From the sequence record PV467748.1: a stretch of 64,000 nucleotides of DNA, one strand, 5' to 3'. The position numbers and the translations under genes are program-made. This DNA is from a phage. Within the stretch, counting starts at the first letter, position 1. Each line of letters starts with the position of its first letter. Below are positions 1 to 53,877 of the stretch, piece after piece. The notes under the pieces are model-generated. The model worked only from the letters and a program-made list of their open reading frames with translations, had not been told where the DNA came from and searched no databases.

Positions 1-2210
1 TAAGCCGCTTCCACGGCTTTCATGAATTTAACGATTTGAGCTACAGAAGCCTCGGTAATGGATGTTCCACGACGATACATGTAGTCCGAAACTAAATGGT
101 AATCAGATTCAAACTGTAGAGTCATTTTATCATTGTTACTTGAAGCATTATTGGTTAACGTATTGAACGTCGTGTTACAGATTTTCTTGATAACAGAAAG
201 TTTGTCATCAGTGATATACCCATGGAAATTCATATAACGGAATATATCATAGAAATTGCTCAGACGAGTATATGCTTCAGATACCGGCTTGTCACTGAAA
301 TACTTAGTCATGAAACCAAGCTCAGGGAACTTAGCGATGATTTCAAGATAATATCTTGCACGGGTATTGCTACCAATGTAGCCATCAATATCTACCGCAT
401 CCAATGCTTCGGCATAAGCTTCTAATGTAGCTTCCATCAAGCATTCGCATTGGCCTAACTTTTTAATCTTTTTGGCAATCTGAGGGCGGATGACATGGAA
501 TTCAGTAGCACCAATCAAATTAGCCATACGACACATGGTAGTGGTGTTGATGTCAAAGATACCATAAGCTTCGTCCATTCCCATGATATCAGAACGATTG
601 CCAAACAGAACATAACCTGTAATTTCTTCTGCTTCAGCGGCAGTTAAGTACAGGGTTTCATTAGCCCAACGCCCGTTTTTAATGAACCAACGATAAGCAC
701 TTGGTGATTTAGGACGCGGTTCTGACGAACGAACAGTAACCGGAATCCATGGCTTAACAATTTTATTCAGTTCAGAGACTTTATAAAAATGAATTGTGTC
801 GCCTTTAAAAAGTTCTTTAACCTTTTCAAGTTGCTGCATTTGCAACATTGAATTTGGGTCGACGAAAATAAGGTCTGTTCCGTATTTAGGAATATTGTGC
901 TCTTTAACAATTTTCTTGGCTGAAGCGCTGTTGTCCATTGCCAGGGCCCAAAGTCCTCGAACCAGAGGTACACGGCCCTTTTCATCATCATAAACAACAT
1001 GGATTTCTTTCTTATTAATGCCTAATAAATTACTAAGTCCTGCTACCGAAGAAGTATTACCGCTCGGCTTAATTCGTTTCAAACGCGGGTCTGAAATGAT
1101 TTCGTAAACCACACCTAAATTAATAAGGTCGTTTTGAAGGGTATAACGCTGGTATAATTTCTCATATGTCAATTTTTCTGTAGTAAACAGGCTAGTTCCA
1201 CCTTTTTTGGTAAGATAGTCACGAGCACTGTAACCAAGGTTAGAAAGGTCACGATAAACATGGCGTGGATTATCAGATTCAACCCATTCCTTCGTATCAT
1301 TTTTAAAGACCACTGCATCTAGTGCTTCAATACGGGTTGCAATATTTTCCATCGTACGTTTATCAAGAGACAACACTTCACGAGACGGAGCAATATCCAG
1401 TGAACCCATAGGGAACTTAATATAAACTACATCATGGCGAGTACGCATCCATGTGCCTTTATTATAAGCAGAATCCAATGGATAAACAATACCACCATAA
1501 ACTGCATAAAGCCCTGAACGTTCGAAGCTGCCATAATTTGTAGTGGTTACAGGATGATAATCGTCAAATTCAGGGAAATAATCAACTTCAACGCCATCAA
1601 CATCACCGAGTCCAATGAAAGGCCGCATGATATAACGAACTTCAGTTTCGAACTTACGGAAGTCTTCTTCGTCCACAGGAACTGTGATTTCGATGCCTGT
1701 TTTATCACCTGGCTGCATAGGTTCTACGAAAGTAGGTTTAATCTGTGGCCCATCACCATCCATATATGCTACATAACCACGAACTTCACCATTATGCCAT
1801 GAAGTGATATTAAACGTTTCGGTATAACTGAACGGAGATTTTGAACCAAGGCCAAAGCCACCGATGAAATCGTTAGAAGCGGTTTTGGATGATGCGAAAT
1901 AAGAGTTATACAACCCGGTTTCGTTTTCATCACCACGAATCTGGAAATCACTCATACCCGGACCGAAGTCACGGCACACAAAGCGAGGGTCCAGTTTACC
2001 AGGAACCTGTACTTTCCAACGTTCTTTATTACCATTCAGAATATGAGCGTCAATCATGTTAGTAATTAGTTCACGTACTACAGCACGTACTTTATTACTA
2101 TAAAGGTCTGATGACAAAATTTTAAAGACCTTAGGCGATGCCTGGATAGTAAAGCCTGTGGACTTAGCACCATTACCAATGATTTGTTCTTTTTCGGTTT
2201 CAATAATCAT
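1..2210 (-). CDS. rIIA: rIIA protein, N-terminal part (gene runs off the left edge of the window)
   Basis: ATG at 2210; translation MIIETEKEQIIGNGAKSTGFTIQASPKVFKILSSDLY... matches remembered T4 rIIA N-terminus; frame open to position 1; synteny with rIIA.1 and gene 39. Confidence 0.85.
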   Translation of the reverse strand, partial: MIIETEKEQIIGNGAKSTGFTIQASPKVFKILSSDLYSNKVRAVVRELITNMIDAHILNGNKERWKVQVPGKLDPRFVCRDFGPGMSDFQIRGDENETGLYNSYFASSKTASNDFIGGFGLGSKSPFSYTETFNITSWHNGEVRGYVAYMDGDGPQIKPTFVEPMQPGDKTGIEITVPVDEEDFRKFETEVRYIMRPFIGLGDVDGVEVDYFPEFDDYHPVTTTNYGSFERSGLYAVYGGIVYPLDSAYNKGTWMRTRHDVVYIKFPMGSLDIAPSREVLSLDKRTMENIATRIEALDAVVFKNDTKEWVESDNPRHVYRDLSNLGYSARDYLTKKGGTSLFTTEKLTYEKLYQRYTLQNDLINLGVVYEIISDPRLKRIKPSGNTSSVAGLSNLLGINKKEIHVVYDDEKGRVPLVRGLWALAMDNSASAKKIVKEHNIPKYGTDLIFVDPNSMLQMQQLEKVKELFKGDTIHFYKVSELNKIVKPWIPVTVRSSEPRPKSPSAYRWFIKNGRWANETLYLTAAEAEEITGYVLFGNRSDIMGMDEAYGIFDINTTTMCRMANLIGATEFHVIRPQIAKKIKKLGQCECLMEATLEAYAEALDAVDIDGYIGSNTRARYYLEIIAKFPELGFMTKYFSDKPVSEAYTRLSNFYDIFRYMNFHGYITDDKLSVIKKICNTTFNTLTNNASSNNDKMTLQFESDYHLVSDYMYRRGTSITEASVAQIVKFMKAVEAA

Positions 2211-2217
2211 ATTTTTC

Positions 2218-2421
2218 TCAATTCAGGTTACGTTTAAAAAGGTCTGCCACTTCAAGGAGCTCGTCCTTAGTAGCGATGTCGTTAAGTATTTTATATCTGA
2301 TTTCTTTAAAGCGTTCTTTAAAATCCTCAGCCGCATTGATATCAAAAAATCTCTGGATTAACCGGAATTCTTTATGGACGGCTTTATCAAACAAATCAAT
2401 ATTCACTTTAAAGTTTGTCAT
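2218..2421 (-). CDS. small protein in rIIA.1 position (67 aa)
   Basis: ORF immediately upstream of rIIA as in T4; no motif recognised. Confidence 0.5.
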   Translation of the reverse strand: MTNFKVNIDLFDKAVHKEFRLIQRFFDINAAEDFKERFKEIRYKILNDIATKDELLEVADLFKRNLN

Positions 2422-2731
2422 TTTTAACTACCTCATGTTGAGCATATTCTCTGGTAGAACCTAGTTCAGCCAGAATTCTTCTCATAGAACCCATTGTACT
2501 TTTGTGCTCTCTGTGGCGATACATTATCTCTAAAACCTTTTCCTGGACAACAGGAGAGAGCGCCTGGTTATCTTTAATCTTTAAGGCAATAGATTTTACA
2601 GCCTTAAGGTATTCAAGTCCCTTACCGCTTGTAGTCACTACTCCTTCGTCCTTACAGTTACGAATGGCTGTTTCCATAAAGGATAAAGCCAGGTTGTCAG
2701 TGTTCACTATACTGTTATCTTGCATAATCAT
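2408..2731 (-). CDS. hypothetical protein (107 aa)
   Basis: ORF between gene 39 and rIIA.1; not gene 60 (topoisomerase subunit is contiguous here). Confidence 0.45.
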   Translation of the reverse strand: MIMQDNSIVNTDNLALSFMETAIRNCKDEGVVTTSGKGLEYLKAVKSIALKIKDNQALSPVVQEKVLEIMYRHREHKSTMGSMRRILAELGSTREYAQHEVVKNDKL

Positions 2732-2779
2732 ATTCTCACCTCTTAGAGAATCGTATCATACTTTTAATCAGTTGTAAAC

Positions 2780-2805
2780 CCCGAAAAGGGCCCGAAGGCC
2801 CTTAT
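2780..2805 (-). terminator. hairpin with UUCG tetraloop on the minus-strand RNA
   Basis: aagggcc-cgaa-ggccctt inverted repeat on plus strand; reads GGGCC-UUCG-GGCCC on the transcript. Confidence 0.5.
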
Positions 2806-3023
2806 TAGTTACTTGAATCGACCTTATAGACCTGTCCGCGGGTTTGGTAAACTTCGCCGTCCCATGTTTCAACTGTGATAGTAACGTACTCTGCAAAAAG
2901 AGGACGTGTATCTGTCCAGAGATAACCATATTCACCTGTGACGAGCGTAACCCAGTACTTTCTCATAAAGTCTCCTTTTGTATGGCACCAATTAGTACCA
3001 TACGTATTTATTACGACATCCAA
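2805..3023 (-). CDS. hypothetical protein (72 aa)
   Basis: ORF only. Confidence 0.35.
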   Translation of the reverse strand: MDVVINTYGTNWCHTKGDFMRKYWVTLVTGEYGYLWTDTRPLFAEYVTITVETWDGEVYQTRGQVYKVDSSN

Positions 3024-20255: not shown

Positions 20256-20569
20256 CTCTTAGATTTAATTTTATCCAGTTCTTCTTGTATTTGCATTGTA
20301 ACACATTTTTCTACATGAAGCGCTAGCTCTTCTTTTCGGTCTTCGGAAGGTGTTCCGAAATCAACCGACACTTTTCCATCTTTCTCAATAACAATATTCA
20401 TCACATAAACGATGTGAGCAGTGCCATCAGGTAATGTAAGCATAATTTCCTGCTTAACAGAACCCATTGACTTACGGATTATATCTAATGATTTCTCATA
20501 ATAACGAGGGTCACTAGGACCCTCTTCGGTATCTTTAACAAAATTATCTAAATCAGATAAATCAGTCAT
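20240..20569 (-). CDS. 40: gp40-like protein (109 aa)
   Basis: position between 41 and uvsX as in T4; sequence not verified. Confidence 0.45.
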   Translation of the reverse strand: MTDLSDLDNFVKDTEEGPSDPRYYEKSLDIIRKSMGSVKQEIMLTLPDGTAHIVYVMNIVIEKDGKVSVDFGTPSEDRKEELALHVEKCVTMQIQEELDKIKSKRWWKW

Positions 20570-21743
20570 GGTCGCTCACAAAATTCATATTTTCTAAATC
20601 GTTTTCGATATCAGCTGCGCTTTGAGTGTCGCCACTCAATTTAACTGCAACGTTCTTAGAGACACGAGAGTTAATAAGGTCGTTCACCGCATCATCGACT
20701 TCTTTAATAGAATTAATTGCACCAAGCTTATACTTATTCTCGATTGCTTCACGGAACGGGGCATGTTTAAACAGTGGTCCCCAGAACTCGACACAATCGG
20801 TAGCTTTAGCACGCCATGATTTTTCTTCTTGAACCATTTCACCTGTGGTTTCGTCAAGGAATGCACGATTATACCAACCAGCTTTAGGTTTCACAACAAA
20901 GCCAATATCAGTAGCCATTTCAAGCAATCCACTGAATGGGTCGATACCACCTTCAAAGTTCACAGTAATTGGGAACGTTGATTTCTCTTTAACAGTACGA
21001 GATTTTTCGGCCTTCAGGGTGAAGTCATAACCAGTGAGCTCGGTGCCATCTTTAACCTGACGTTTAGAGATAAAGAATACGGTAGAAGCAGAGTACAGAA
21101 TACCGGTACCGCCACCCATAATCTCTTTAGGATACATTCCACCAATTTCCATAGCCGTATGGTTAATTGCTACACAAGGGATATCCTTGATGGTCAGATA
21201 AGGTGTTACGATACGGAACAGAGATTTCAGTGACTTAGCACGGGTCATATCACCTACAACTTTCTCGTTCAAAGCATCTTCGGTTTCTTTCTTAGAAGCG
21301 GTGTTACCGATGGAGTCGATAAAGATAATAACCTTTTCGCCACGAGTAATTTCTTCTAATTGGTTGGTCATATCAACTTTAAGCTGTTCGACTGACTGGA
21401 TTGGAGTATGGACTACTCGTTCCAAATCAACACCCATCGAACGGAAATAAGATTCTGAAGCACCAAACTCAGAGTCATAGAACAAACAAATTGCGTCTGG
21501 ATATTTCTTCATATATGCCGCAACCATGGTAAGTCCAAACAACGTTTTAAAGTGTTTAGATGGAGCAGCAAAGATTGTCAAACCTGATTGTAAGCCTGCA
21601 TTCAACGCACCGCCTAATGCAATATTCAGCATAGGGATACGAGTAGGAACTTCGTCACGACCATTAAACAATTTAGATTTGGTCAGGTCGGCAGTCATTT
21701 TAGAAGTAGAAGCTTTAATCAAACGGGATTTTAAATCAGACAT
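20562..21743 (-). CDS. uvsX: UvsX recombinase (RecA/Rad51-like)
   Basis: 393 aa; near-collinear with remembered T4 UvsX. Confidence 0.9.
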   Translation of the reverse strand: MSDLKSRLIKASTSKMTADLTKSKLFNGRDEVPTRIPMLNIALGGALNAGLQSGLTIFAAPSKHFKTLFGLTMVAAYMKKYPDAICLFYDSEFGASESYFRSMGVDLERVVHTPIQSVEQLKVDMTNQLEEITRGEKVIIFIDSIGNTASKKETEDALNEKVVGDMTRAKSLKSLFRIVTPYLTIKDIPCVAINHTAMEIGGMYPKEIMGGGTGILYSASTVFFISKRQVKDGTELTGYDFTLKAEKSRTVKEKSTFPITVNFEGGIDPFSGLLEMATDIGFVVKPKAGWYNRAFLDETTGEMVQEEKSWRAKATDCVEFWGPLFKHAPFREAIENKYKLGAINSIKEVDDAVNDLINSRVSKNVAVKLSGDTQSAADIENDLENMNFVSDHD

Positions 21744-21820: not shown

Positions 21821-22714
21821 TTAAAGGACCACGTCCTCATAACTTGGCATTTCGTGCTCAGAATGGATATGGGCACCGAAATAAATGAATTCAGCTAGAC
21901 CAGGATGGAATACTAAACCAGGATTCTCATGATAAATGATATGAGGTCTTGATTTCAGAATCTGATAATATTCAACCTTACTCGGTTTGAATTTAATAAT
22001 CTCTACATCAGGACGATAGTCTTCACGTTTAAATGAATCATTCGGATCGGTGATATAAAGACGAGCACCTTCAGCTGCAGCTTGGTCTACAACTCTTTCG
22101 AATTGATAGCACTTATCTGAAATACGGAATGGGTGGAAAATACCATCAATTTTAATAGGCGCTAGACCATCAGAGTAACGCTCAATTACTGCAGGATTAA
22201 TTACCTTTTGGTCTACAAAAATCTTATCAGAGGACGCACCTCGTGACACCAGGACGTCTTTCTGGCATTGGTTCAAGACCGTAGTATAAATCGAACGTTC
22301 AACTGAAGACACGTCGGTATCAATAAACTCATCGATGTAATAACGAGGAACTTCAGGGTCCATTGTAATGTTAAAGTTGAATTGTACAGTATGGGCACCA
22401 TCATAACCAGTGATATCGGTTACTAAGCCTGAGCAGTCATAGTATTCTATTAACGAATCAACAACGAACTCATTTTCGGACCAAAAATGTTTACGGGTTT
22501 CATAAGCATTTTCTTTATACCAAAGTGGTACGAAATTCAGTTCTGGGAATAATTCAATGCATTCTTTGATATCGCTCGAATTTCTAGGATAAGCCAGATA
22601 ATCACCTGGGCAAGCACGGTTTAAATGGAGTTGGAAATTACCGTCCTTAAGGACGGCATATTCACCTGTTTCGTAACTACGCATACTGAAAATAGGAACG
22701 ATAAACAAACTCAT
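21821..22714 (-). CDS. hypothetical protein (297 aa) in the beta-glucosyltransferase slot; candidate DNA glycosyl/modification transferase
   Basis: sits between uvsX and 42 where T4 has beta-gt, but does not resemble remembered T4 beta-gt. Confidence 0.3.
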   Translation of the reverse strand: MSLFIVPIFSMRSYETGEYAVLKDGNFQLHLNRACPGDYLAYPRNSSDIKECIELFPELNFVPLWYKENAYETRKHFWSENEFVVDSLIEYYDCSGLVTDITGYDGAHTVQFNFNITMDPEVPRYYIDEFIDTDVSSVERSIYTTVLNQCQKDVLVSRGASSDKIFVDQKVINPAVIERYSDGLAPIKIDGIFHPFRISDKCYQFERVVDQAAAEGARLYITDPNDSFKREDYRPDVEIIKFKPSKVEYYQILKSRPHIIYHENPGLVFHPGLAEFIYFGAHIHSEHEMPSYEDVVL

Positions 22715-23409
22715 TTCAGGAAACCTCGGACGTAGTCAAAATCACGTTCAAACACGTGTGCACTTACCATGGTGTGGGAATATGTACCTAAACCGACACC
22801 ACACTGTTCAGCAATAAAGGCCATCAGTTTACCCTGCAGATAGAAATCCAGCTGCATAACAATAGCACAGTTCTGTGAACGCATATGGGTATGTGCATAA
22901 AGACGTCCATCACGAATATAATATGTTACCGAATCGGTACATGGATATTCTAAGGATTCGTCAGAATCAAGGAGGGCTTGGTCTTGTTCTTGGAGAATCT
23001 GGAACACAACGCGTCTTGAGTTAGGTTTCTCTTTAAGCTCTTTAAGTAGGGCTGGGAGTTGGGCCACAATTCGGGGTCCATAGAAAGTGTTGAAGTTTGC
23101 AGGCAATACGTCACTTTTCGGCTTATCAATGAACTTAGCAACATTAGGATATTCCTTAAATGCTTCGGCGGCGTCAGTACCACCGGAAATCATAAACTTC
23201 CAGAAAGATTCGGCATAATCATAGTTGATACGATTAATACGAGGGTCGGTGAACTTGAATGTGCTTGCATCCAGTACTTCAACTGAAGCAGAACCAATTT
23301 CATAACAACGGCCGATACGAGAATCAACTGCAAACTGTGGAGCTTCCAGGATTTCTTCGTTCATTTGCTTAAACGCGTTTTCAAAACTAACAGCGGTAAT
23401 GTGTTTCAT
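22711..23409 (-). CDS. 42: dCMP hydroxymethylase (thymidylate-synthase fold)
   Basis: EYPCTDSVTYYIRDGRLYAHTHMRSQN aligns with remembered gp42 catalytic-Cys region; NSRRVVFQIL. Confidence 0.7.
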   Translation of the reverse strand: MKHITAVSFENAFKQMNEEILEAPQFAVDSRIGRCYEIGSASVEVLDASTFKFTDPRINRINYDYAESFWKFMISGGTDAAEAFKEYPNVAKFIDKPKSDVLPANFNTFYGPRIVAQLPALLKELKEKPNSRRVVFQILQEQDQALLDSDESLEYPCTDSVTYYIRDGRLYAHTHMRSQNCAIVMQLDFYLQGKLMAFIAEQCGVGLGTYSHTMVSAHVFERDFDYVRGFLK

Positions 23410-23948
23410 TTATTCACCTTATTTTCAATATATTCATTCAGACGTTTTAATTCTACCATATCGACGTTAAGCAAGTTATTATAACCGTCGTGATTTAAGA
23501 TTTTAAACACGTTTTCAAAACATGTTTCATATTGGCGGATAGTTAGGTTGAACTCATCTTTGGTTAATTTAATAAGGTCATCTTCAAAGTCTTTATCCAG
23601 TGGATTACGGGTTAAAATAACCTCAATAATATTGAATTCAGATTTAAACCTTTTCCAATCTTCCAGTTCTACATAAGGGTCCATTTCACCACGAAGGAAT
23701 CCCGAGTAAACAATATTACTTGGATAACCACGGTCAAGGATGTAAACGAAATTAGGGTCTAAAAACTTATACAACGTCTCGACTAAAGCCTTGTCATTAT
23801 CGGTCCCTAATGAAATGCATTTGCCATTAATCTTTTTAGGGAAATCAATAAGACGATATTTCTTATCAGAATCAGATAAAAGCGATTCAATTAAAGTAGA
23901 CTTCCCGGAATTATCCGGGCCGTCGATAACAATGATTTTTGGTTTCAC
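23406..23948 (-). CDS. P-loop nucleotide kinase, thymidylate-kinase-like
   Basis: Walker A IIVIDGPDNSGKSTLI; Tmk-like LDRGYPSNIVYSG motif; no counterpart at this position in T4. Confidence 0.6.
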   Translation of the reverse strand: MKPKIIVIDGPDNSGKSTLIESLLSDSDKKYRLIDFPKKINGKCISLGTDNDKALVETLYKFLDPNFVYILDRGYPSNIVYSGFLRGEMDPYVELEDWKRFKSEFNIIEVILTRNPLDKDFEDDLIKLTKDEFNLTIRQYETCFENVFKILNHDGYNNLLNVDMVELKRLNEYIENKVNK

Positions 23949-24319
23949 GGATGATATGCCTTATAGGTTTCAAGAGTTCCTTCACGAACCATTTCTTTAA
24001 AGTGGTCAGGACGGATTGCTCGGTCATCGATGATAAAAGTATAACTTGGTTTATGCGTAAGCAAATTATGATATTTCAAACCAATCTTTTCAAGGTTCTT
24101 AACCAATGCGGGAACTACTTCAACTAAGATTCGACCCGGGCCGCATGAAGTCATGCCACGAGCAGTGAACAACGTAATCTCGTGGCCTTCATCATAAAGC
24201 TTATTAATCATGGACACCATTTCGGTGTCAGGTTTAAAGTTTTCGTAATCACGATTAGAGTCCCAGACCGTGATTGTGTTATCGATATCAAAACACAGAT
24301 GCATTAAATTTTCTTCCAT
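23945..24319 (-). CDS. HAD-superfamily phosphatase (small, capless)
   Basis: motif I CFDIDNTIT (DxDxT), motif II LFTAR, motif IV IIDD. Confidence 0.6.
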   Translation of the reverse strand: MEENLMHLCFDIDNTITVWDSNRDYENFKPDTEMVSMINKLYDEGHEITLFTARGMTSCGPGRILVEVVPALVKNLEKIGLKYHNLLTHKPSYTFIIDDRAIRPDHFKEMVREGTLETYKAYHP

Positions 24320-26007
24320 TGTTTGTGGAGTTCAGTAGAACCTGTAGGTTTATATTTTACACCGGTTTCCTGGTCAAGCAAAACCCACTTATCAGGACAA
24401 CGAGTGATAATTTGAGCCGTGATAGGGCCACGAACTTCATCGACAAATTCACCTGTAATAAGCTTACGCTTACGAGGATGCCGCTTCAGCAGCACACTCA
24501 GTTGGTATAGACCGTTGTAATAAGCACCCAGAGCTTTCAGAGGATTATTCTTAAAGTAACCTGCCAGTGCCATCCAAATAACGGCAATCCAGAGCTTGTG
24601 CTTAAATGTACACATCGGAATATCATCTAAAGACATAACCTTTTCAATATCAACGAATACACGAGTTCCGTTACGAGTTAATCCGCCCCATAGAGGGTCA
24701 GAGTTAAATTTGTCATAGCCATCGATAGAATAAAGCACCTTAGCTTCGTCATAAATCGCAGGGCCTTTAGAACTATTACCAAAATAACCACGTGGGTCGA
24801 TGATTTTAATATCACCTTCGTCCGACAACATAATATTACTGTAGTGCGGGTCACCATGAATAAGTTGGTATGGTTCTTTATGTTCAGACAGAATTTCTAG
24901 TGCATGGCGAAGAAGTTTTTCAGGGTCGCCTACCTTAAAGTCGTTAACATGGGTAATACCCTGTGGGGCAAAGCCTTCAATCAATCCGGCAATAGAAGCA
25001 TTACGAATCAGGACCTTGTCCAATACTTCTTTCTTAACATCAGAATACCATTGCTCATCGGACGGATTATCGATAGTTCCACCGAATGAACGTAATGCAC
25101 TAATGACCTTATAAACCATGAGGACTTTAGTTTCTTTAGACATAAACCGATAGGCATCTGCCATGGTGCGACCAAAGATACGTTCCATTTTAATGAATTC
25201 GCCTGGAGCAAAGTCTACAATGCTCGGAACAAATTCAGAATCAATAGAATTATACCAATTGATTTCTTTAGATTGGATTTCTTTACCTAATTCGTTGGTA
25301 GGTACTTTAATAGCCAGATTCTCAGTGAACTCTAATTTATTAAATTCACGGTTAATTTCAGAATCTTCATGGGCCCTAGCCAGTTTCAATTTGTCACCGA
25401 CATCAACCACAAAGTCCAGCTTACGTTCAGTCAAATGGACCATCGAATCCAGGTTGTCTGCAAGGTCTTCGCCATAATTAGAACGGTCGAAACCTGTCCA
25501 ATTAGCCACCTGATACAAACCAACCACACCACCGCCAGTACCAATTTCACGCAAGTACGGTTCTTCAAATGTAAAACGACAGTCGGTCCCATAGGTATAA
25601 CAGTAGTCGTTATCCCACTCAACTTTATGACCTTCAGGAATAATATCACACCAGTTAAACAAGACATTATGCCCGATGATATCTTCGGCAATGCAATCGA
25701 TAGCATGAGCTGAACCATTGGCGACGTCTACGTTACGAATAGTGAATTTAGGCTTATCACTGGTAATCATGTTAATGGATTTAATGTAACCCTTAACGAG
25801 GTCATTAAATTTGCTGTGAATAACCAGAATAATTTCATCTGATTGGTTACTATACAAATCATACAAATGTTTTAGTACTGTATGCTGTTTGTAGTTAACC
25901 AATACCTTCGGGATTTCGTTAGTAATTGGATACAACCGTGAGCCAAGACCCGCTCCTAAAATAACAACCTTTTTCATTATCTGTTCCTCAAGTGAATGTA
26001 GGTACAT
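24304..26007 (-). CDS. bifunctional nucleotidyltransferase (N-term) / small-molecule kinase (C-term) fusion, 567 aa
   Basis: N-term VVILGAGLGSRLYPITNEIPKVLV (sugar- or choline-phosphate nucleotidyltransferase signature); C-term HGDPHYSNIML...IKIIDP (APH/choline-kinase-like catalytic loop). Confidence 0.65.
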   Translation of the reverse strand: MYLHSLEEQIMKKVVILGAGLGSRLYPITNEIPKVLVNYKQHTVLKHLYDLYSNQSDEIILVIHSKFNDLVKGYIKSINMITSDKPKFTIRNVDVANGSAHAIDCIAEDIIGHNVLFNWCDIIPEGHKVEWDNDYCYTYGTDCRFTFEEPYLREIGTGGGVVGLYQVANWTGFDRSNYGEDLADNLDSMVHLTERKLDFVVDVGDKLKLARAHEDSEINREFNKLEFTENLAIKVPTNELGKEIQSKEINWYNSIDSEFVPSIVDFAPGEFIKMERIFGRTMADAYRFMSKETKVLMVYKVISALRSFGGTIDNPSDEQWYSDVKKEVLDKVLIRNASIAGLIEGFAPQGITHVNDFKVGDPEKLLRHALEILSEHKEPYQLIHGDPHYSNIMLSDEGDIKIIDPRGYFGNSSKGPAIYDEAKVLYSIDGYDKFNSDPLWGGLTRNGTRVFVDIEKVMSLDDIPMCTFKHKLWIAVIWMALAGYFKNNPLKALGAYYNGLYQLSVLLKRHPRKRKLITGEFVDEVRGPITAQIITRCPDKWVLLDQETGVKYKPTGSTELHKQWKKI

Positions 26008-26037
26008 TATACACTATTTTTAATAAATTGGTATTGC

Positions 26038-26538
26038 TTAAATCTTATCTTTACCGATTTCAATACACTGTTCTATTGCCGCCGGTACTTTGGTCTTGAG
26101 CTTATCGATTTGTTTCTTATAATCACGAGCTTTACCGAAGCTCTCGGTTTCGAGCATTTCGTAATAACGAGCCTCGTGGATGGAAATCTGTAGATTGATA
26201 TGATTTACACACATCGCATACAGTTTCTGCTTTTTGTACAAATCATCTTGACGCTTCATTTCTGCCTGGTGTTTGGCTAGTACCGCTTCACGCTTAGACT
26301 CTTGTTCACGTTGGAATTCGATTTCCCTTTGAGCATATTTTGCACAGTTATTACCGCATTGATTATTAGCTCGGGTATACACAAGTCCGGAACCAGCACG
26401 GAATTTCATTTCACCGTCATATTGTTTCTGTTCAGCTGCGATACGAGCTTTACCAACTTCATCAGCCGAAACTGCATCGCCATATTGGACCGCGCAACCT
26501 GATAGGAGCATACTCATTGCGATAATTAACTTTTTCAT
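26038..26538 (-). CDS. predicted lipoprotein (166 aa)
   Basis: signal peptide with lipobox LSGC; helical, charged remainder. Confidence 0.5.
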   Translation of the reverse strand: MKKLIIAMSMLLSGCAVQYGDAVSADEVGKARIAAEQKQYDGEMKFRAGSGLVYTRANNQCGNNCAKYAQREIEFQREQESKREAVLAKHQAEMKRQDDLYKKQKLYAMCVNHINLQISIHEARYYEMLETESFGKARDYKKQIDKLKTKVPAAIEQCIEIGKDKI

Positions 26539-26545
26539 AATATCC

Positions 26546-26683
26546 TCAATTAAAACAGTTATACTTAATTTGTGCTATAAGAATAATCCATCCAATGATG
26601 AGTGTCGGAATCATTGGCGGAATTGCCACTGCCCAGTAAATGGTAAAGGCAGACATTATAAGAAATAAAATAATTATTTTCAT
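26546..26683 (-). CDS. small membrane peptide (45 aa), not in the ORF track
   Basis: MKIIILFLIMSAFTIYWAVAIPPMIPTLIIGWIIL...; ATGA overlap with the imm stop. Confidence 0.3.
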   Translation of the reverse strand: MKIIILFLIMSAFTIYWAVAIPPMIPTLIIGWIILIAQIKYNCFN

Positions 26684-26916
26684 TGCTTGACAATAATGAT
26701 TTGTGCATTTGATTTACGTTCAGCGACGATGGCCCAGATTAAAGCCACTACCCAACCAATCATCGTCCAACCCAACAGGAGGTTTAGGAAGAAAATTCCG
26801 ACATTACTACGAGTGCCTCGCAGAAGAGCCAGAATCCATGGTAAAAAGTAACCGATGAACATAATAACCAGAGAACCGAATCCTAAAACACCAGCACTAA
26901 CGATTAAAGCTTCCAT
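26680..26916 (-). CDS. imm: superinfection immunity protein Imm
   Basis: 78-aa two-TM protein with LNLLLGWTMIGWVVALIWA motif; position between 43 and 42. Confidence 0.65.
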   Translation of the reverse strand: MEALIVSAGVLGFGSLVIMFIGYFLPWILALLRGTRSNVGIFFLNLLLGWTMIGWVVALIWAIVAERKSNAQIIIVKQ

Positions 26917-26935
26917 TGTAATTTCCTCATGTAGT

Positions 26936-26978
26936 TGATAGGAAGGATATTACCACGTTCCTTGTGGTATGTAAACAC
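26936..26978 (-). promoter_or_regulatory. T4-type early promoter upstream of imm
   Basis: minus GTTTACATACCACAAGGAACGTGGTAATATCC. Confidence 0.5.
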
Positions 26979-29690
26979 TTAAAAGTCGAACATATCAAAT
27001 AATGTTGCTTTTTTCTCGTAGTCGATTTTAGCAGACTCAGTAAAACCGGTCAGAGGCTTGATAAAGGTCTTTTGGAACAGTACGTTGTAGTCCATCCAAC
27101 GGAGGACCTGGTCGCGAATCTGAACCGGGAGTTCAATACCTGACGGCCATGCCATACAAGCTTCACCGAACGGGTTGCCTTCTTTAAGCGGCAGTACATA
27201 TACCTTTTCACCATCAACGATACGAGGCATAGTCAAATCACCCGCAGAAGCACGCATGTAAGCTAAGCAACCTTTGATGTGGTATGGGCATTTAGAACCA
27301 GGGAATCCGCCTTCATTATATTTCTCGATGTTGTTAGCACTGGATACTGCTGCAATGCTTACATAATCGAGTTCGTTAAATTCCTTATTAAACTGTTTGA
27401 AATATTCTTGCAAAGATGCCTCGCCTTCCTGAAGCATACGACGGATACATTCCTTCAGAGCTTTCTGAACTGCTTTAGGTGTACTTGATTTCTGAGTTTC
27501 GAGACCCATGATTTTCAAGTGTGGTTCAGCATAACGAGTACCTTCCATGTCCCAAACGTTAAGTGCATAACGTTTCTTGCCTGTCCAGAATCCACCAAGG
27601 CCTTTAGAACCAAGTGGAGGACCTGCGATAGCTTCTCGGTCCATGAACATCAAGTGTTGTTTGTTGTTCATGTACTCGCACATCTCACGGAAGCCTGCAT
27701 CAATAGCCGGTTCCATACGTTCGCGTGCAAATTTATCTAAGAAGTCAACCCAGTGGTTAGTATCACGGAATTTATCTTCGCCTACTTTATTGATGATTGC
27801 ATCCGCCTTAACATAAATGGAGTCAGTATCACCATAGAGCACGAACTTCTGATTTTCAGTCTTACACACGCTATTCAGATATTCGTTAACCTTACGTTCA
27901 ATCCATTGGAGGGCCATTTGACCAAACAGTGTGATTGCAGTTGCGTTCCTGAGGTCATAATAACGGAACCATACGTTACCAAGTGCACCATAAAGGGAGT
28001 TGATAAGCAACTTACGGTTAATCTGAGCAGTGTTACCTGCAACTTCAGTGAGCTCGGCTTTCTTCAACATTTCTCTTAAAGAAGGCGCTGACAGTGCTTT
28101 AATCTGGGCTTTGATTTCGTCAGAGAAGTCAAAACGATAATCGATATCCAGTGGACTATCAACTGAGAGATTAGGATTTTCCAATGCTTCTTTAATTAAC
28201 TCGCCATTACGTTGAGCTGCAAGCATGTAACCTTTATGTTCTTTACGCTGTAAGAACACCTTCGTGATTTCTGTCGGAATCACACCTTCACGGTCTTTAT
28301 AATACATCATACCGTTAGGAGAGCAACTGTAGGTGTCGCTAGGACGCTGAGCAGTTCCGGCAATATATTCATGTATCGGCGCGTTGGCGAATGTCCCTGC
28401 GATGGTCTCTGGGCTTATATTCACTTGTCGAATGATACTCGGGTACAGAGATGTAAGGTCGAAACTCATTACATATTTGTAAGCGTTAGGAATCGGTTCC
28501 TTAACGAAAGCACCAGGATAAGGTTGGACCACGTGTGAACGAGCTTGTGGAATTACCTTGCCTTGTTCTTTAAGGCTATTAAAGATAATAGCGTCCCAAG
28601 TCTTAATTGGACTAAACACCGACTGAATCTGCATCTTGGCATAATAACCCATGTCCAAACTCAGAAGAATGAACTGACGCTTCATATCAATCTGCACTAC
28701 ACGATATACGTCGATAATGTTATAGGAAATATATCGTTGGTGGTTCGTCTCACGTAACTTAGAGATTGGACCATCATATTTCAACTTACCCACTTTCAAT
28801 TCATATTCAGAAACATAATCCAGAGAATAAGAAGGCTGGTTGGTGAAGCTGAATTTTTTATAGAGGTCGATATAATCCAGAACAGAGATACCGAACAATG
28901 TAATGATTTCACGAGCACCGTACATGTTCTCAATAACTTTAACACGAGTTTTACGATGTGGGCTTAATCGCTTAGCAGTGTTCTCACCGAACAGATTTTT
29001 CAGACGGTTATAAACGTACGGTACGTCAAACGACTCAACGTTCCATCCAGTCAAAATCACAGGAGTTTTCTGTTGCCAGAAATTCAAGTACTCAAGCATC
29101 ATTTCTTCTTCAGAATTAAACGGAAGATAAACGATTTTGTCAATGATTTCCTGTGGAACTTCGTCACCACCTTCGTCTTGGAGTTTCTCAGCGATTTTAA
29201 TCGACCACTCTTCAACAGTACCATAAGGCGAAACTAAAAGGTCGAATACATAGAATTTATCGTCAATCGAGTCGTAGTGGGTAATGGCATCGATAGGATG
29301 TTTAGCCTGAGCTGGTTCAGGGAATCCATCAGGAGATGTTACCTCGATGTCGAAGTTAGCAATACGAATCTTAGAAGAATCATATTTGATTTCTTTACGA
29401 TAGGTATCAGACAAATAGGCTAATTTATAGTCGTCCATACCCAGGGCTTCGAGACCCATATCATCCATACGTTTCATCCATTGGGATGCATCACGCATAG
29501 AATCGAATTCTTTCTTAACACAACCCTTACCATAGATATCAATGTATTTTACGGCTTGCTCTGGATTAGCATGCATAAACATTGTAGGCTTGTATGGAAC
29601 TTCACGACTACGTTCGTTACCATTTTTATCGATGTAACGTTCGAGAATATTATCACCGATTTGTTCGACTGTCAAATAGAATTCTTGCAT
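26979..29690 (-). CDS. 43: DNA polymerase (family B), start refined to MQEFYLTVEQIG
   Basis: 903 codons; FDIEVT exonuclease motif, YGDTDS polymerase motif; collinear with remembered RB69/T4 gp43. Confidence 0.95.
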   Translation of the reverse strand: MQEFYLTVEQIGDNILERYIDKNGNERSREVPYKPTMFMHANPEQAVKYIDIYGKGCVKKEFDSMRDASQWMKRMDDMGLEALGMDDYKLAYLSDTYRKEIKYDSSKIRIANFDIEVTSPDGFPEPAQAKHPIDAITHYDSIDDKFYVFDLLVSPYGTVEEWSIKIAEKLQDEGGDEVPQEIIDKIVYLPFNSEEEMMLEYLNFWQQKTPVILTGWNVESFDVPYVYNRLKNLFGENTAKRLSPHRKTRVKVIENMYGAREIITLFGISVLDYIDLYKKFSFTNQPSYSLDYVSEYELKVGKLKYDGPISKLRETNHQRYISYNIIDVYRVVQIDMKRQFILLSLDMGYYAKMQIQSVFSPIKTWDAIIFNSLKEQGKVIPQARSHVVQPYPGAFVKEPIPNAYKYVMSFDLTSLYPSIIRQVNISPETIAGTFANAPIHEYIAGTAQRPSDTYSCSPNGMMYYKDREGVIPTEITKVFLQRKEHKGYMLAAQRNGELIKEALENPNLSVDSPLDIDYRFDFSDEIKAQIKALSAPSLREMLKKAELTEVAGNTAQINRKLLINSLYGALGNVWFRYYDLRNATAITLFGQMALQWIERKVNEYLNSVCKTENQKFVLYGDTDSIYVKADAIINKVGEDKFRDTNHWVDFLDKFARERMEPAIDAGFREMCEYMNNKQHLMFMDREAIAGPPLGSKGLGGFWTGKKRYALNVWDMEGTRYAEPHLKIMGLETQKSSTPKAVQKALKECIRRMLQEGEASLQEYFKQFNKEFNELDYVSIAAVSSANNIEKYNEGGFPGSKCPYHIKGCLAYMRASAGDLTMPRIVDGEKVYVLPLKEGNPFGEACMAWPSGIELPVQIRDQVLRWMDYNVLFQKTFIKPLTGFTESAKIDYEKKATLFDMFDF

Positions 29691-29747
29691 TTCATTTCCT
29701 TTATAGACGAGTGATTGTCTTTTGTTTGTTGATGAATCATTATACTC

Positions 29748-29772
29748 CAAAAGGGACCGAAGTCCCTTTGCT
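29748..29772 (-). terminator. UUCG-tetraloop hairpin upstream of gene 43 (terminator and/or translational operator region)
   Basis: aagggac-cgaa-gtccctt; followed on the transcript by TATAAT. Confidence 0.45.
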
Positions 29773-47373: not shown

Positions 47374-48354
47374 TTATTTCAGAAGTGTAACTTCAGCGAT
47401 TTCGCTCCAGTCATTTTTATCGGTGGCAATGAAGTCCGCCAGATAAAGAGCCGTACGTAATGATACGTTACGAAGACGAGATACATTGGCCTTCATCCAT
47501 GCTAGAGCTTGATAAGTCTCAGCATCAGTCAGACCTCGGTTTTGCATCATATCAGTGGACAGGATAACGTCTTCAACACGAACCATAATCTCTTCATTCG
47601 AGTGAACTCCGAGGTCTAAGTAAACTGAACGAGATACTAAAGCCTGGAGGTGTGGAGCAAGTTTAGTGCCGCGTTCTAATTCACGGTCAATATCAACGTT
47701 GGTGATGAACACGATGGTGCCTTCATATTCGAATTCTTTATCGATATTTTTATCATCGAGGTAAGAACTTGAAGTGCTCCAGCACACCTTACGTTTTTCA
47801 CCGGTATCCAATGCCGCTTTTAACAGGTTCAGGATATCCATATCAGAGAATACATCGACATCATCGATAAGAAGAACACTATTAGGGCCGCGGTTATTCC
47901 AAAGCTGCTCGTAAAGACCGATTCCACTAATCTTTCCGTTGATTGATTTATATTCGATAGTTTCATTTTCGTGGGCATTCTGTAATGCTTTATCCAAAGA
48001 ATACGTTTTACCAATACCTGCGGCACCAGAGATGATAAGGGAACGAATTTTACCATCGATGATTCCGTTAGTCATCATGTTCATTACTTTAAAACGTTTG
48101 TTGATGCGGTGTTTCATTTCTTCAGCGGATTCAGTAACCACTACAGGAGCTTCAGCACCTTCCATTTCAACATCACATTTGAACACCCATATACCACGTT
48201 CAACACCATCAATCTGTACGAATACCTTGCCATCACCGAGGTGAGCTTCGGATTCATGAATTTTATTAGGGAACCAGGTTTTACCTGAACTCATGAACGT
48301 ACCAGAGATTTCATTACCGCGATAGATACCTTTGTTGATTTTGATAGTTAACAT
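47374..48354 (-). CDS. AAA+/P-loop ATPase (326 aa; start refined)
   Basis: Walker A ISGAAGIGKTYSL, Walker B VLLIDDVD. Confidence 0.55.
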   Translation of the reverse strand: MLTIKINKGIYRGNEISGTFMSSGKTWFPNKIHESEAHLGDGKVFVQIDGVERGIWVFKCDVEMEGAEAPVVVTESAEEMKHRINKRFKVMNMMTNGIIDGKIRSLIISGAAGIGKTYSLDKALQNAHENETIEYKSINGKISGIGLYEQLWNNRGPNSVLLIDDVDVFSDMDILNLLKAALDTGEKRKVCWSTSSSYLDDKNIDKEFEYEGTIVFITNVDIDRELERGTKLAPHLQALVSRSVYLDLGVHSNEEIMVRVEDVILSTDMMQNRGLTDAETYQALAWMKANVSRLRNVSLRTALYLADFIATDKNDWSEIAEVTLLK

Positions 48355-48444
48355 TATATTCTCCGTTTCACTCAGTAGATTTGATAGGTCCATAATAACA
48401 TGCTCTACGAGGTTGTAAACACTTTTTTGCACTAAACCCAAAAA

Positions 48445-48468
48445 AAGGACCCCGAAGGGTCCTAAATT
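48445..48468 (-). terminator. UUCG-tetraloop hairpin
   Basis: aggaccc-cgaa-gggtcct preceded by an A-run (U-run on the transcript). Confidence 0.5.
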
Positions 48469-48686
48469 GCGCTCCAATAATTATGGAAGCGGATATTATT
48501 GATAGCCCAGTTAATACAACGTCTTATCTGCTTAGTCGTAGGCTTGCATACGTACTTGAAATTGATTCTTCTACCGGTTTCTCTACAAACTACTTCAAGA
48601 TACCAACGACAGGTTTTATGAGGTCTTCCATATGACAGGAAAACCTTGATTTCTTCTTTAACGGTAATAAGAGTTGTGGTTGTCAA
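48462..48686 (-). CDS. small basic protein with KPTTKQIRR motif (family member 4)
   Basis: shared motif. Confidence 0.4.
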   Translation of the reverse strand: MTTTTLITVKEEIKVFLSYGRPHKTCRWYLEVVCRETGRRINFKYVCKPTTKQIRRCINWAINNIRFHNYWSAI

Positions 48687-49698
48687 GATACACCTCTTCG
48701 ACGAACTTGTCCCAGAACTTCATGTCTACCTTCTCAGGCATACCGTTCTTAGCAGCCTGGATGGCTAGGACTTCAACCAAATCAACAGTATCTTCAAGAA
48801 GTTCTTGAACTTCTTTAAATGGTAATTCACCGGCTTTAATCAGCTTAATGATAGAGGCTTCACGCAATGGGAACACCAGGTCGCCTGTTTGGTAGATTTC
48901 CAACAATTGATACCCTGCGCGATAAGCATGGCTCAGAGCTTTCCAGTCAATACCTTCGTTAGCTTCAGCTTTACGGGCCCGTTCACCATATTCCGCATCG
49001 AGCTTATTCAGAGATTGCTTGAGCTCGATTAAAGATAAAGTAGTTTGGTACTTACGTCCAAGAACAGTATAGAACGTTTGAGGGCCTGTTTTCTCATGGT
49101 TATGGAATACCCATTCACAGAATTCGTTTTCAGGGAGTCGATGTTTGATATCTTCTACCTTAGTGCGACGTTGCTTAGTAGAACCATCTTCTTGATAATC
49201 AACCCACTGTTCAGGAATCTGGTTGACTATTGCCAGTACACCACGCAGAGCAGCCAGACGAGAACCTTTAACACCATATTTAGAAGCTTGCTTACGGACA
49301 TACCCTAAATAGGCTTTCATGTTGGTTGTATAGAACCGAGAACGGTTGTCTTGGATAAATTTCCATACATCAGGTAAATCAGATTTAACCACCATTTCAG
49401 GCGGAGTGTGGAGCATATCCAGAGCAACGGTTTCGCCATCAGCAGCCAGTTTAAAGAAATATTTCAGGCTATAAAGCTCATGGTCAACATCATCTTTAGT
49501 GTTTTTGGAAGCAGTGTTATTCGTGTTCAGGTTGGTATGGTTCATAGCCGTACCTAACAGAATATCACGCGGATGCGGAACAAAGATTTCTTTAAAATCG
49601 ATATCAGATTCCGGAGTACTTGTTCCATAAAGGTGGCTACCGAAGTAGCCCTTCATAATTGTTCTCATTCTTTGTTCTCGAAGTGGATTACAGGACAC
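48658..49698 (-). CDS. pol-beta-superfamily nucleotidyltransferase domain protein (346 aa)
   Basis: YFGSHLYGTSTPESDIDF matches the GS-x10-DxD minimal nucleotidyltransferase signature. Confidence 0.5.
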   Translation of the reverse strand: MSCNPLREQRMRTIMKGYFGSHLYGTSTPESDIDFKEIFVPHPRDILLGTAMNHTNLNTNNTASKNTKDDVDHELYSLKYFFKLAADGETVALDMLHTPPEMVVKSDLPDVWKFIQDNRSRFYTTNMKAYLGYVRKQASKYGVKGSRLAALRGVLAIVNQIPEQWVDYQEDGSTKQRRTKVEDIKHRLPENEFCEWVFHNHEKTGPQTFYTVLGRKYQTTLSLIELKQSLNKLDAEYGERARKAEANEGIDWKALSHAYRAGYQLLEIYQTGDLVFPLREASIIKLIKAGELPFKEVQELLEDTVDLVEVLAIQAAKNGMPEKVDMKFWDKFVEEVYLDNHNSYYR

Positions 49699-52579: not shown

Positions 52580-53152
52580 TCAACTCGTTATTTCTATCCA
52601 GTGCTTCCTGCACAATGACACGTAAGAATCGTTGCCACCTATAGAAACTTGGGCTCCGTCCTTAATTGCGACACCATCTTGGACCCTAGCAGTCATAGTA
52701 GCTTTACGGCCGCAATGGCACACACCTTTGTACTCAACGAGTTTATCTGCCGTAGCGAGTAATTCAGCAGAACCAGGAAACAGTTTACCCTGAAAATCAG
52801 TTCTTAGCCCATAGCACATAACTGGAACATTATAATTGTCTACTATCTTTGCCAGTTGTTTTATCTGTGCAGGTTCTAAGAACTGTGCTTCATCCACAAA
52901 CACACAGTGGATATCTTTTTGAGATTCAGCCCAACGATAGAACTCGTATAGGTCCATATCCGGAGTCACTGCATTAGCCTCTTGACTAATCCCTATACGA
53001 GACGAAATGGTATGGCTTGATTCTCTATTGTCTATCGCAGGCTTTAAAAGGAGCACGCCCATACCACGTTCTTTGTAGTTATGAGCTGCCGTTAGCAATG
53101 AAGCGGTCTTACCTGAGTTCATTGCCGCATAGTGAAACATCAAACTTGCCAT
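52580..53152 (-). CDS. tk: thymidine kinase
   Basis: MASLMFHYAAMNSGKTASLL...VFVDEAQF...CHCGRKA collinear with remembered T4 Tk. Confidence 0.95.
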   Translation of the reverse strand: MASLMFHYAAMNSGKTASLLTAAHNYKERGMGVLLLKPAIDNRESSHTISSRIGISQEANAVTPDMDLYEFYRWAESQKDIHCVFVDEAQFLEPAQIKQLAKIVDNYNVPVMCYGLRTDFQGKLFPGSAELLATADKLVEYKGVCHCGRKATMTARVQDGVAIKDGAQVSIGGNDSYVSLCRKHWIEITS

Positions 53153-53877
53153 TTAGATACAATTCCTCTATAAGAACAATCAGGATAACCTTTATTCAGG
53201 GCTATCTTTTTAAACATATATGCCGAGGGCTTATTAGATTCTTCCCATAGCATTTTCAATTCGTCATAATATTTCCAAGCCTCATTTCTAATAGGAGAAG
53301 GTTTTCCTTTCATTGCACCTTGTTTACCAAACATAGGATTCTTTTCACCCTTTTTAGAATCACTCATGTTTTTAATAGTAGCACATGAATGCTTAAAGCC
53401 TTTTAATTTTTTAGAGGCTTGCCCTATTTTAGCTTTATGTTCGTCTGTAAACCCTATTCTATTTGAATAGTGGTTCTGGCCTTTATTAGAAGTAGTGTGT
53501 TTAGAAGCTTCTATCCTCGCGTCGCTCCATTTAACTCCTTTTTTAGACCTAGACATTTTATATTTGGTCAATAAAGATAACTTGGACCCTTTCTTTTTAC
53601 CACGTCCGCCATCAGCAAAATTTAAGGAATGTTTTCCATATTTTAATTTAGCTTTTTCTACTAAAGGAACTTCAGCGTCGTAAGCTTCATCCTCAGTTTC
53701 AAAGAATTTTAATATACGGGTTTTATAAGGGTGTTTTTTGCAAATATTTTTAACAACAGTACCACTTCCAAAATACCCATCAGAAAGATTATCGGTAGAA
53801 TGTTTTCCTACGTAATAATAGTTGGCCTTGAGGGTTTTTATTACAGTTAAATAATTATAATGGAATTCCTTTACCAT
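53140..53877 (-). mobile_element. free-standing GIY-YIG-type homing endonuclease-like gene (Seg-like)
   Basis: N-terminal YYYVGKHST...YFGSGT; basic C-terminal half with repeated NUMOD-like KKG...NPMFGK elements; overlaps tk start. Confidence 0.45.

Follow-up and report, generated by a model that had tools for sequence, protein, structure and literature searches.

A gene on the minus strand of a 64,000-nucleotide stretch of phage DNA (sequence record PV467748.1, hereafter the window) encodes a fusion of a nucleotidyltransferase domain and a kinase domain in a single chain. This protein is very probably the Dhakavirus ortholog of AfhE (RB69 gp52:53, DLP3 gp82), the bifunctional maker of the activated sugar used in arabinosylation of phage DNA. 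The window itself is from a Dhakavirus-type T4-like coliphage, with 95-96% nucleotide identity to KIT01, WG01, Bp7 and QL01. Work published between 2018 and 2026 already covers the family, the domain architecture, the role in the pathway and the occurrence in Dhakaviruses.

The original prediction described a 567-aa ORF at 24304-26007 and did not state its strand. The frame is intact, and the ORF listing and translation place its 567 codons on the minus strand. The plus-strand translation of the same interval is riddled with stops throughout. At the window GC content of 39.4%, 567 consecutive sense codons would arise by chance with p ~5e-17. This is the maximal frame, however, and ATG 25977 (M11 of the ORF) is the likely start of the coding sequence, since it has a Shine-Dalgarno sequence upstream, the alignments with RB69 gp53 and with the HY126 homolog begin at M11, and the WG01 ortholog is annotated in RefSeq at 557 aa. 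No Shine-Dalgarno was found in the sequence read upstream of ATG 26007. The features of the start region are as follows:

24304..25977, minus strand: coding sequence of the bifunctional enzyme, likely 557 aa plus stop (the maximal ORF reaches ATG 26007, 567 aa)
25985..25989, minus strand: GAGGA Shine-Dalgarno, 7 nt upstream of ATG 25977, read from the sequence

The window gene differs from its WG01 ortholog at 76 nucleotides, 65 of them at third positions; 74 codons are changed, 69 of them synonymously. This pattern points to purifying selection, and indicates that the intact ORF is expressed. That the two domains are fused, with the nucleotidyltransferase at the N-terminus, stands as originally predicted: the ORF is continuous, with no frameshift between the domains. 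A reading as two separate genes was rejected, as the window ORF is unbroken, and the split seen in the RB69 GenBank entry is a sequencing error, ORF053c and ORF052c being one gene of 561 residues (Thomas et al. 2018, PMC6024577).

To describe the protein, an alignment of 107 homologs was used, with residue numbers following the 557-aa protein, and an AlphaFold2 model was built from it (mean pLDDT 95.1, pTM 0.91). Three regions are distinguished:

25363..25977, minus strand: N-terminal sugar-1-phosphate nucleotidyltransferase domain, aa 1-205, predicted to convert UTP and Araf-1-P to UDP-Araf
24478..25362, minus strand: APH/choline-kinase-fold kinase domain, aa 206-500, predicted to convert ATP and Araf-5-P to Araf-1,5-bisphosphate
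24307..24477, minus strand: C-terminal tail, 57 aa, from the alignment gap profile; pLDDT 84-93 with short strands

In the N-terminal domain, VVILGAGLGSRLYPITNEIPKVLV carries the G-x-G-x-R...PK signature (GAGLGSR...PK) at nt 25906-25956, and Pfam NTP_transferase (PF00483) is recognised over aa 13-110 with E=3e-8, its 34 bits lying above the gathering cut-off of 21.2. The best structural matches of this domain are nucleotidyltransferases, a result with which Foldseek concurs, and the heptose nucleotidyltransferase HddC appears among the structural matches. Signature, profile score and fold all place the domain with the sugar-1-phosphate nucleotidyltransferases (PF00483; the fold of RmlA, GalU, MurU and LicC). 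A sequence search of the PDB found no solved structure for the fusion family, and the N-terminal domain was matched there weakly, with LicC on top (E=1.6e-4). Residues G10, R14, K24, D111, D192, D195 and K198 are invariant or nearly so across the 107 homologs, and all are present here.

The HGDxxxxN loop of the kinase domain is HGDPHYSN (nt 24835-24858), and downstream of it the domain also carries the IDPRGYFG motif, within IIDPRGYFG at nt 24778-24804. Pfam APH (PF01636) is recognised over aa 356-427 with E=8e-6, and its score of 26.2 bits exceeds the gathering cut-off of 23.2. Structural matches of the modelled domain include the choline/ethanolamine-kinase family protein 3dxq (14.0), LicA 4r77 (13.6), APH(4)-Ia (13.5), fructosamine-3-kinase (13.1) and glucosamine kinase (12.7). 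Thus the loop, the downstream metal-binding Asp, the profile score and the fold all indicate membership in the APH/choline-kinase-like phosphotransferases (PF01636). K224, E238, H374-G-D376, N381 and D394 are present, and are likewise invariant or nearly so among the 107 homologs. Both domain assignments of the original prediction are therefore upheld: Pfam recovered both domains, Foldseek the N-terminal one, and structural matches, LicA and APH(4)-Ia among them, the C-terminal one. The 57-aa tail is confined to the T4-like phage clade in the 107-homolog alignment, and is missing in most distant homologs.

The fusion gene sits in the replication module, between the genes for DNA polymerase gp43 (26979-29750) and UvsX (20562-21743), and is the first of five minus-strand genes with start/stop overlaps. 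The other four are:

23945..24319, minus strand: HAD-family phosphatase, 124 aa, predicted to convert Araf-1,5-P2 to Araf-1-P; TIGR01689 and HAD-IIIA matches
23406..23948, minus strand: thymidylate-kinase-like P-loop protein, 180 aa; 38% identity to RB69 gp45 (E=3e-31); phrog_761
22711..23409, minus strand: thymidylate-synthase homolog, 232 aa, predicted 5-hydroxy-dCMP synthase; Pfam PF00303
21821..22714, minus strand: predicted first DNA arabinosyltransferase, 297 aa, homolog of RB69 gp46:47; phrog_3891

The HAD phosphatase gene starts before the fusion gene has ended; with ATG 24304 as its start instead, the overlap would be TAATG. The phosphatase has 64% identity (E=2e-65) to HY126 XAN60478.1, which is taken to be AfhF, and RB69 gp51 is also homologous. 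The thymidylate-kinase-like protein may be a nucleotide kinase for the modified dNMP. The thymidylate-synthase homolog is 79-80% identical to RB69 gp48 and to its HY126 counterpart. The predicted arabinosyltransferase has no Pfam match, and shows 67% full-length identity to HY126 XAN60474.1 (E=2e-149) and 70% identity to RB69 gp47. Pfam scans of the other large ORFs of the 64-kb window revealed no further glycosyltransferase. A scan of 21.5-27.2 kb for promoters and terminators found sites no more numerous than in shuffled sequence.

The members of the block are full-length homologs of proteins from the cluster for arabinosyl-5-hydroxycytosine DNA modification in RB69 and HY126. An AfhF-type HAD phosphatase, a 5hodCMP synthase and a DNA arabinosyltransferase are all found between gp43 and uvsX, the slot that AfhE of HY126 and RB69 gp52:53 also occupy; there too the HAD phosphatase is next to the fusion, with the 5hodCMP synthase and arabinosyltransferase nearby. 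A choline (LicA/LicC-like) or cell-surface glycan role is rejected, as the gene lies within a DNA-modification cluster of the replication module. The original prediction held that the substrate could not be inferred from sequence. This is correct for the protein taken alone, but synteny and homology together point to D-arabinofuranose, destined for DNA modification, as the probable sugar.

Homology to the known enzymes extends over the full length of the fusion. HY126 XAN60479.1 (562 aa, record PP658200.1) is 42% identical (E=8e-143), with aa 11-567 of the ORF aligned to its aa 1-562, and may be identified as AfhE of HY126 from its correspondence to RB69 gp52:53. The two halves as deposited for RB69 are also recovered, gp53 with 44% identity (E=2e-55) and gp52 with 41% identity (E=7e-77), and phrog_4098 is matched end to end (positions 1-559 of 559, E=3e-268). 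AfhE of HY126, RB69 gp52:53 (ORF53_52c) and Acinetobacter phage DLP3 gp82 have the same domains in the same order (562 aa, against 557 aa here). The ortholog in Thanatos, TH1_060, is 44% identical. In each of two metagenomic proteins, P0091 and P0073, one polypeptide combines HAD, SIS-isomerase, nucleotidyltransferase and kinase domains, which gives independent support for a functional link of the four activities.

Thomas et al. 2018 also noted that further phages, IME08 among them, have full-length homologs of the RB69 gene, and proposed that it takes part in UDP-arabinose synthesis (PMC6024577; also PMC8056088). Mono- and poly-arabinosylated 5-hydroxycytosine are present in RB69 and DLP3 DNA (Lee et al. 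2026, PMC13326640). The same study found experimentally that the thymidylate-synthase homolog RB69 gp48 makes 5hodCMP, reported that the arabinosyltransferases use UDP-Araf, and named Dhakaviruses among the phages bearing the syntenic cluster (PMC13326640). As He et al. 2026 is cited there, AfhE serves as both arabinose-5-P kinase and UDP-arabinose pyrophosphorylase; HY126 AfhE converts Araf5P to Araf1,5P in vitro, after which AfhF dephosphorylates the product, AfhF being a Mg-dependent HAD phosphatase that acts between both AfhE steps (PMC13326640).

The substrates, step order, nucleotide and DNA modification proposed for the window enzyme are those suggested by this published work on homologs. 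D-arabinose-5-phosphate would be supplied first, probably by the host isomerases KdsD/GutQ, since no phage isomerase is encoded in the window. The C-terminal APH-fold kinase domain would phosphorylate C1 to give arabinofuranose-1,5-bisphosphate, and the HAD phosphatase encoded directly downstream (23945-24319) would take off the 5-phosphate to give arabinofuranose-1-phosphate. The N-terminal nucleotidyltransferase would then use UTP to form UDP-arabinofuranose. Lastly, the glycosyltransferase at 21821-22714 would move arabinose onto 5-hydroxycytosine of replicated phage DNA, with the thymidylate-synthase homolog at 22711-23409 as the predicted source of 5-hydroxy-dCMP. In the original prediction the two domains acted in sequence, from X through X-phosphate to NDP-X. 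Their place in one pathway is retained, but they would not be strictly consecutive, as the HAD phosphatase acts between them in the homologous system according to the account of it in PMC13326640.

The same enzyme could reach the same end product by another order of steps, in which the HAD phosphatase converts Araf5P to free arabinose, the anomeric kinase makes arabinose-1-P, and the nucleotidyltransferase follows directly. AmgK/MurU and LicA/LicC, the folds of which are matched here, are known to work in this way. The labels in Table 1 of PMC13326640 also read so, with phosphatases that dephosphorylate 'Araf5p to Ara' and kinase domains that phosphorylate 'Ara to Araf1p', although the text of that paper, in reporting the HY126 in vitro work, has AfhE act on Araf5P to give Araf1,5P before AfhF. 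In addition, the kinase domain has the family-invariant basic residues K321, R325, R396 and K413, which could bind a substrate phosphate. This other order is thus given a small probability, and the order with the bisphosphate intermediate is preferred.

A role of the N-terminal GT-A-like domain as the transferase of sugar to DNA, with some other role for the kinase domain, has been considered for Thanatos TH1_060. TH1_060 is essential for phage propagation, and was retained as a glycosyltransferase candidate; no nucleotide-sugar was reported when it was given xylose-1-phosphate and each NTP, whereas TH1_063 made UDP-xylose, and its in vitro function was not identified (PMC12838424). Against such a role, TH1_060 transferred no xylose to DNA either (PMC12838424), and AfhE is reported as a pyrophosphorylase in the summary given in PMC13326640. 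In the window protein, the G-x-G-x-R...K signature is that of a nucleotidyltransferase, as are the best structural matches, and the cluster encodes a separate, conserved glycosyltransferase. A DNA-transferring N-terminal domain therefore seems hardly credible, and the activity preferred for this domain is nucleotidyl transfer.

The window differs from the HY126 and RB69 clusters in its missing partners. With tblastn, the phage arabinose-5-phosphate isomerase (RB69 gp55) has no match at E<1 in the 64-kb window, so that the adjacent isomerase typical, if not strictly defining, of RB69, HY126 and DLP3 is lacking here. A U32-like gp50 homolog and a second arabinosyltransferase of RB69 gp3 type were likewise not found in the 64-kb window. 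Phage records with the isomerase number 276 and those with the fusion 368, and no Dhakavirus occurs among 60 isomerase matches taken at even spread; this distribution suggests that Dhakaviruses are without a phage isomerase. In the cluster of the related Klebsiella Marfavirus, a gene of U32-like size and position is kept, and no isomerase is shown.

The fusion is also more divergent than its neighbours, with 42% identity to the Mosigvirus enzyme compared with 64-80% for the phosphatase, transferase and synthase. Fusions of Dhakavirus, Marfavirus and Providencia phages form a separate deep branch, with 42-49% identity to all other T4-like members, which are 50-80% identical among themselves. 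Twelve of 139 columns conserved among the other T4-like enzymes are changed in the window protein. The changes are mostly conservative, the exceptions being Y91H, E85V and N378H. Y91H and E85V are inside or beside active-site loops, and N378H/F379Y are within the HGDxxxxN loop.

The lack of an isomerase in the window, its distribution among phage records, the deep sub-branch and the changes at the active-site loops would all be compatible with a shift in specificity, whereby the Dhakavirus/Marfavirus-type enzyme, in phages that lost their own isomerase, activates another pentose, for example ribofuranose from abundant ribose-5-phosphate. A literature search found no enzyme or DNA chemistry, and so no chemical analysis of the DNA, for any Dhakavirus, which also leaves room for such a sugar. 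If this were the case, Dhakavirus DNA would bear a previously undescribed pentosyl-5-hydroxycytosine in place of the arabinosyl form. However, E. coli has a constitutive production of arabinose-5-phosphate, from which it synthesises Kdo, and a phage isomerase would thus be dispensable. The glycosyltransferase, which has to recognise the donor, shares 67-70% identity with the Mosigvirus arabinosyltransferase, and the fusion keeps 127 of the 139 conserved columns. Dhakaviruses are, moreover, placed with the arabinosylating phages in PMC13326640. A shift in sugar specificity is thus unlikely, its probability being very small. D-arabinofuranose remains the preferred sugar, and the simplest reading is that Dhakavirus-type phages use arabinose-5-phosphate that the host makes for Kdo synthesis (KdsD/GutQ). 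Since the window showed no second transferase of gp3 type, the prediction is for mono-arabinosylation and not di-arabinosylation, and these phages probably add one arabinose only.

The proposed pathway follows the same logic as the ADP-heptose pathway of Gram-negative bacteria (GmhA, HldE and GmhB), in which a SIS isomerase is followed by an anomeric kinase acting on a distally phosphorylated sugar, a HAD phosphatase and nucleotidyl transfer. HldE likewise fuses kinase and nucleotidyltransferase, but its kinase is ribokinase-like and N-terminal and its adenylyltransferase is cytidylyltransferase-like and C-terminal, so both the folds and the domain order differ. The sugar of that pathway is a heptose, and its product goes to LPS and not to DNA. 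The bifunctional salvage enzyme FKP of Bacteroides (L-fucokinase/GDP-fucose pyrophosphorylase) has an N-terminal pyrophosphorylase and a C-terminal anomeric sugar kinase, as in the fusion; its kinase is, however, of the GHMP fold and not APH/ChoK, its substrate is the free sugar, and it is ~950 aa long. LicA/LicC (phosphocholine) and AmgK/MurU (MurNAc recycling), the pairs to which the fusion was originally likened, are usually separate proteins with different substrates and roles, and share 10-16% sequence identity with the fusion in structural alignments. In these pairs the product of the kinase feeds the nucleotidyltransferase directly, without a phosphatase between.

In public Dhakavirus records, the fusion is annotated as 'hypothetical protein', 'phosphoheptose isomerase' is the name given to the HAD phosphatase, and the homolog of the 5hodCMP synthase is listed as 'thymidylate synthase'. 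The practical value of the present assignment lies in correcting these labels. Arabinosylated 5-hydroxycytosine shields the DNA of T4-like phages from restriction enzymes and alters recognition by CRISPR and type IV restriction systems, making the arabinosylation pathway relevant to the choice and engineering of therapeutic phages. Within this pathway, the fusion gene would, with high probability, be the supplier of the activated sugar.

The fusion of nucleotidyltransferase and APH-fold kinase (24304-25977, minus strand) shares only 42% identity with the corresponding Mosigvirus protein, whereas the adjoining phosphatase, synthase and transferase (21821-24319) reach 64-80% with their counterparts. 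The Dhakavirus, Marfavirus and Providencia-phage versions of the fusion form a separate deep branch. This divergence could be due to faster evolution of the fusion or to gene replacement. The protein ends in a tail with a confident predicted structure, which is kept in the T4-like phage members but is missing from most distant homologs:

24307-24477, minus strand: C-terminal tail of the fusion, 57 residues (PRKRKLITGEF...HKQWKKI)

Homologs of RB69 gp55, the phage arabinose-5-phosphate isomerase, and of RB69 gp50, a U32-like protein, were not found in the window (1-64000), notably at 26008-26978. The position of the isomerase gene in RB69 is occupied here by a different reading frame:

26038-26538: 166-aa ORF, phrog_1754

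The N-terminus of this ORF, MKKLIIAMSMLLSGC, looks like a lipoprotein signal. Arabinose-5-phosphate is probably supplied to the phage by the host enzymes KdsD/GutQ.

RB69 gp3, the second arabinosyltransferase, likewise has no homolog anywhere in the window, and its syntenic slot, the interval between rIIA and topoisomerase gp39 (1-3011), holds small ORFs only. The absence of gp3 from the window predicts mono-arabinosylation, barring another transferase outside it. Three accessory ORFs were noticed during the glycosyltransferase scan of the window, the last of which is probably a homing endonuclease:

47374-48477: 367-aa AAA/STAND-like NTPase ORF
48658-49698: 346-aa RlaP-like nucleotidyltransferase ORF
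53140-53877: 245-aa ORF with a NUMOD3 motif

Public labels for the genes at 21821-25977 are misleading (records of WG01, Bp7, QL01 and others). The HAD phosphatase is named 'phosphoheptose isomerase', the homolog of 5hodCMP synthase is named 'thymidylate synthase' or 'dCMP hydroxymethylase', and the fusion appears variously as 'hypothetical protein', 'GlmU' or 'UDP-glucose dehydrogenase'.

In two metagenomic proteins, P0091 (946 aa) and P0073 (922 aa), a single chain combines the domains of a HAD phosphatase, a SIS isomerase, a nucleotidyltransferase and an APH-like kinase. These proteins serve as a Rosetta stone that links the four steps of the pathway. They are encoded on short AT-rich contigs (locus L004:14-2854), beside a sulfotransferase gene. 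Distant homologs of the fusion, with the same two domains and 30-33% identity, are found at three further loci (L008:7001-8665, L009 and L010:7001-8659). The contigs there are phage-like and about 310 kb long, with topoisomerase II and Fapy-DNA-glycosylase genes nearby. In L008, a SIS-domain gene lies directly upstream of the fusion homolog. The range of the pathway may include jumbo phages.
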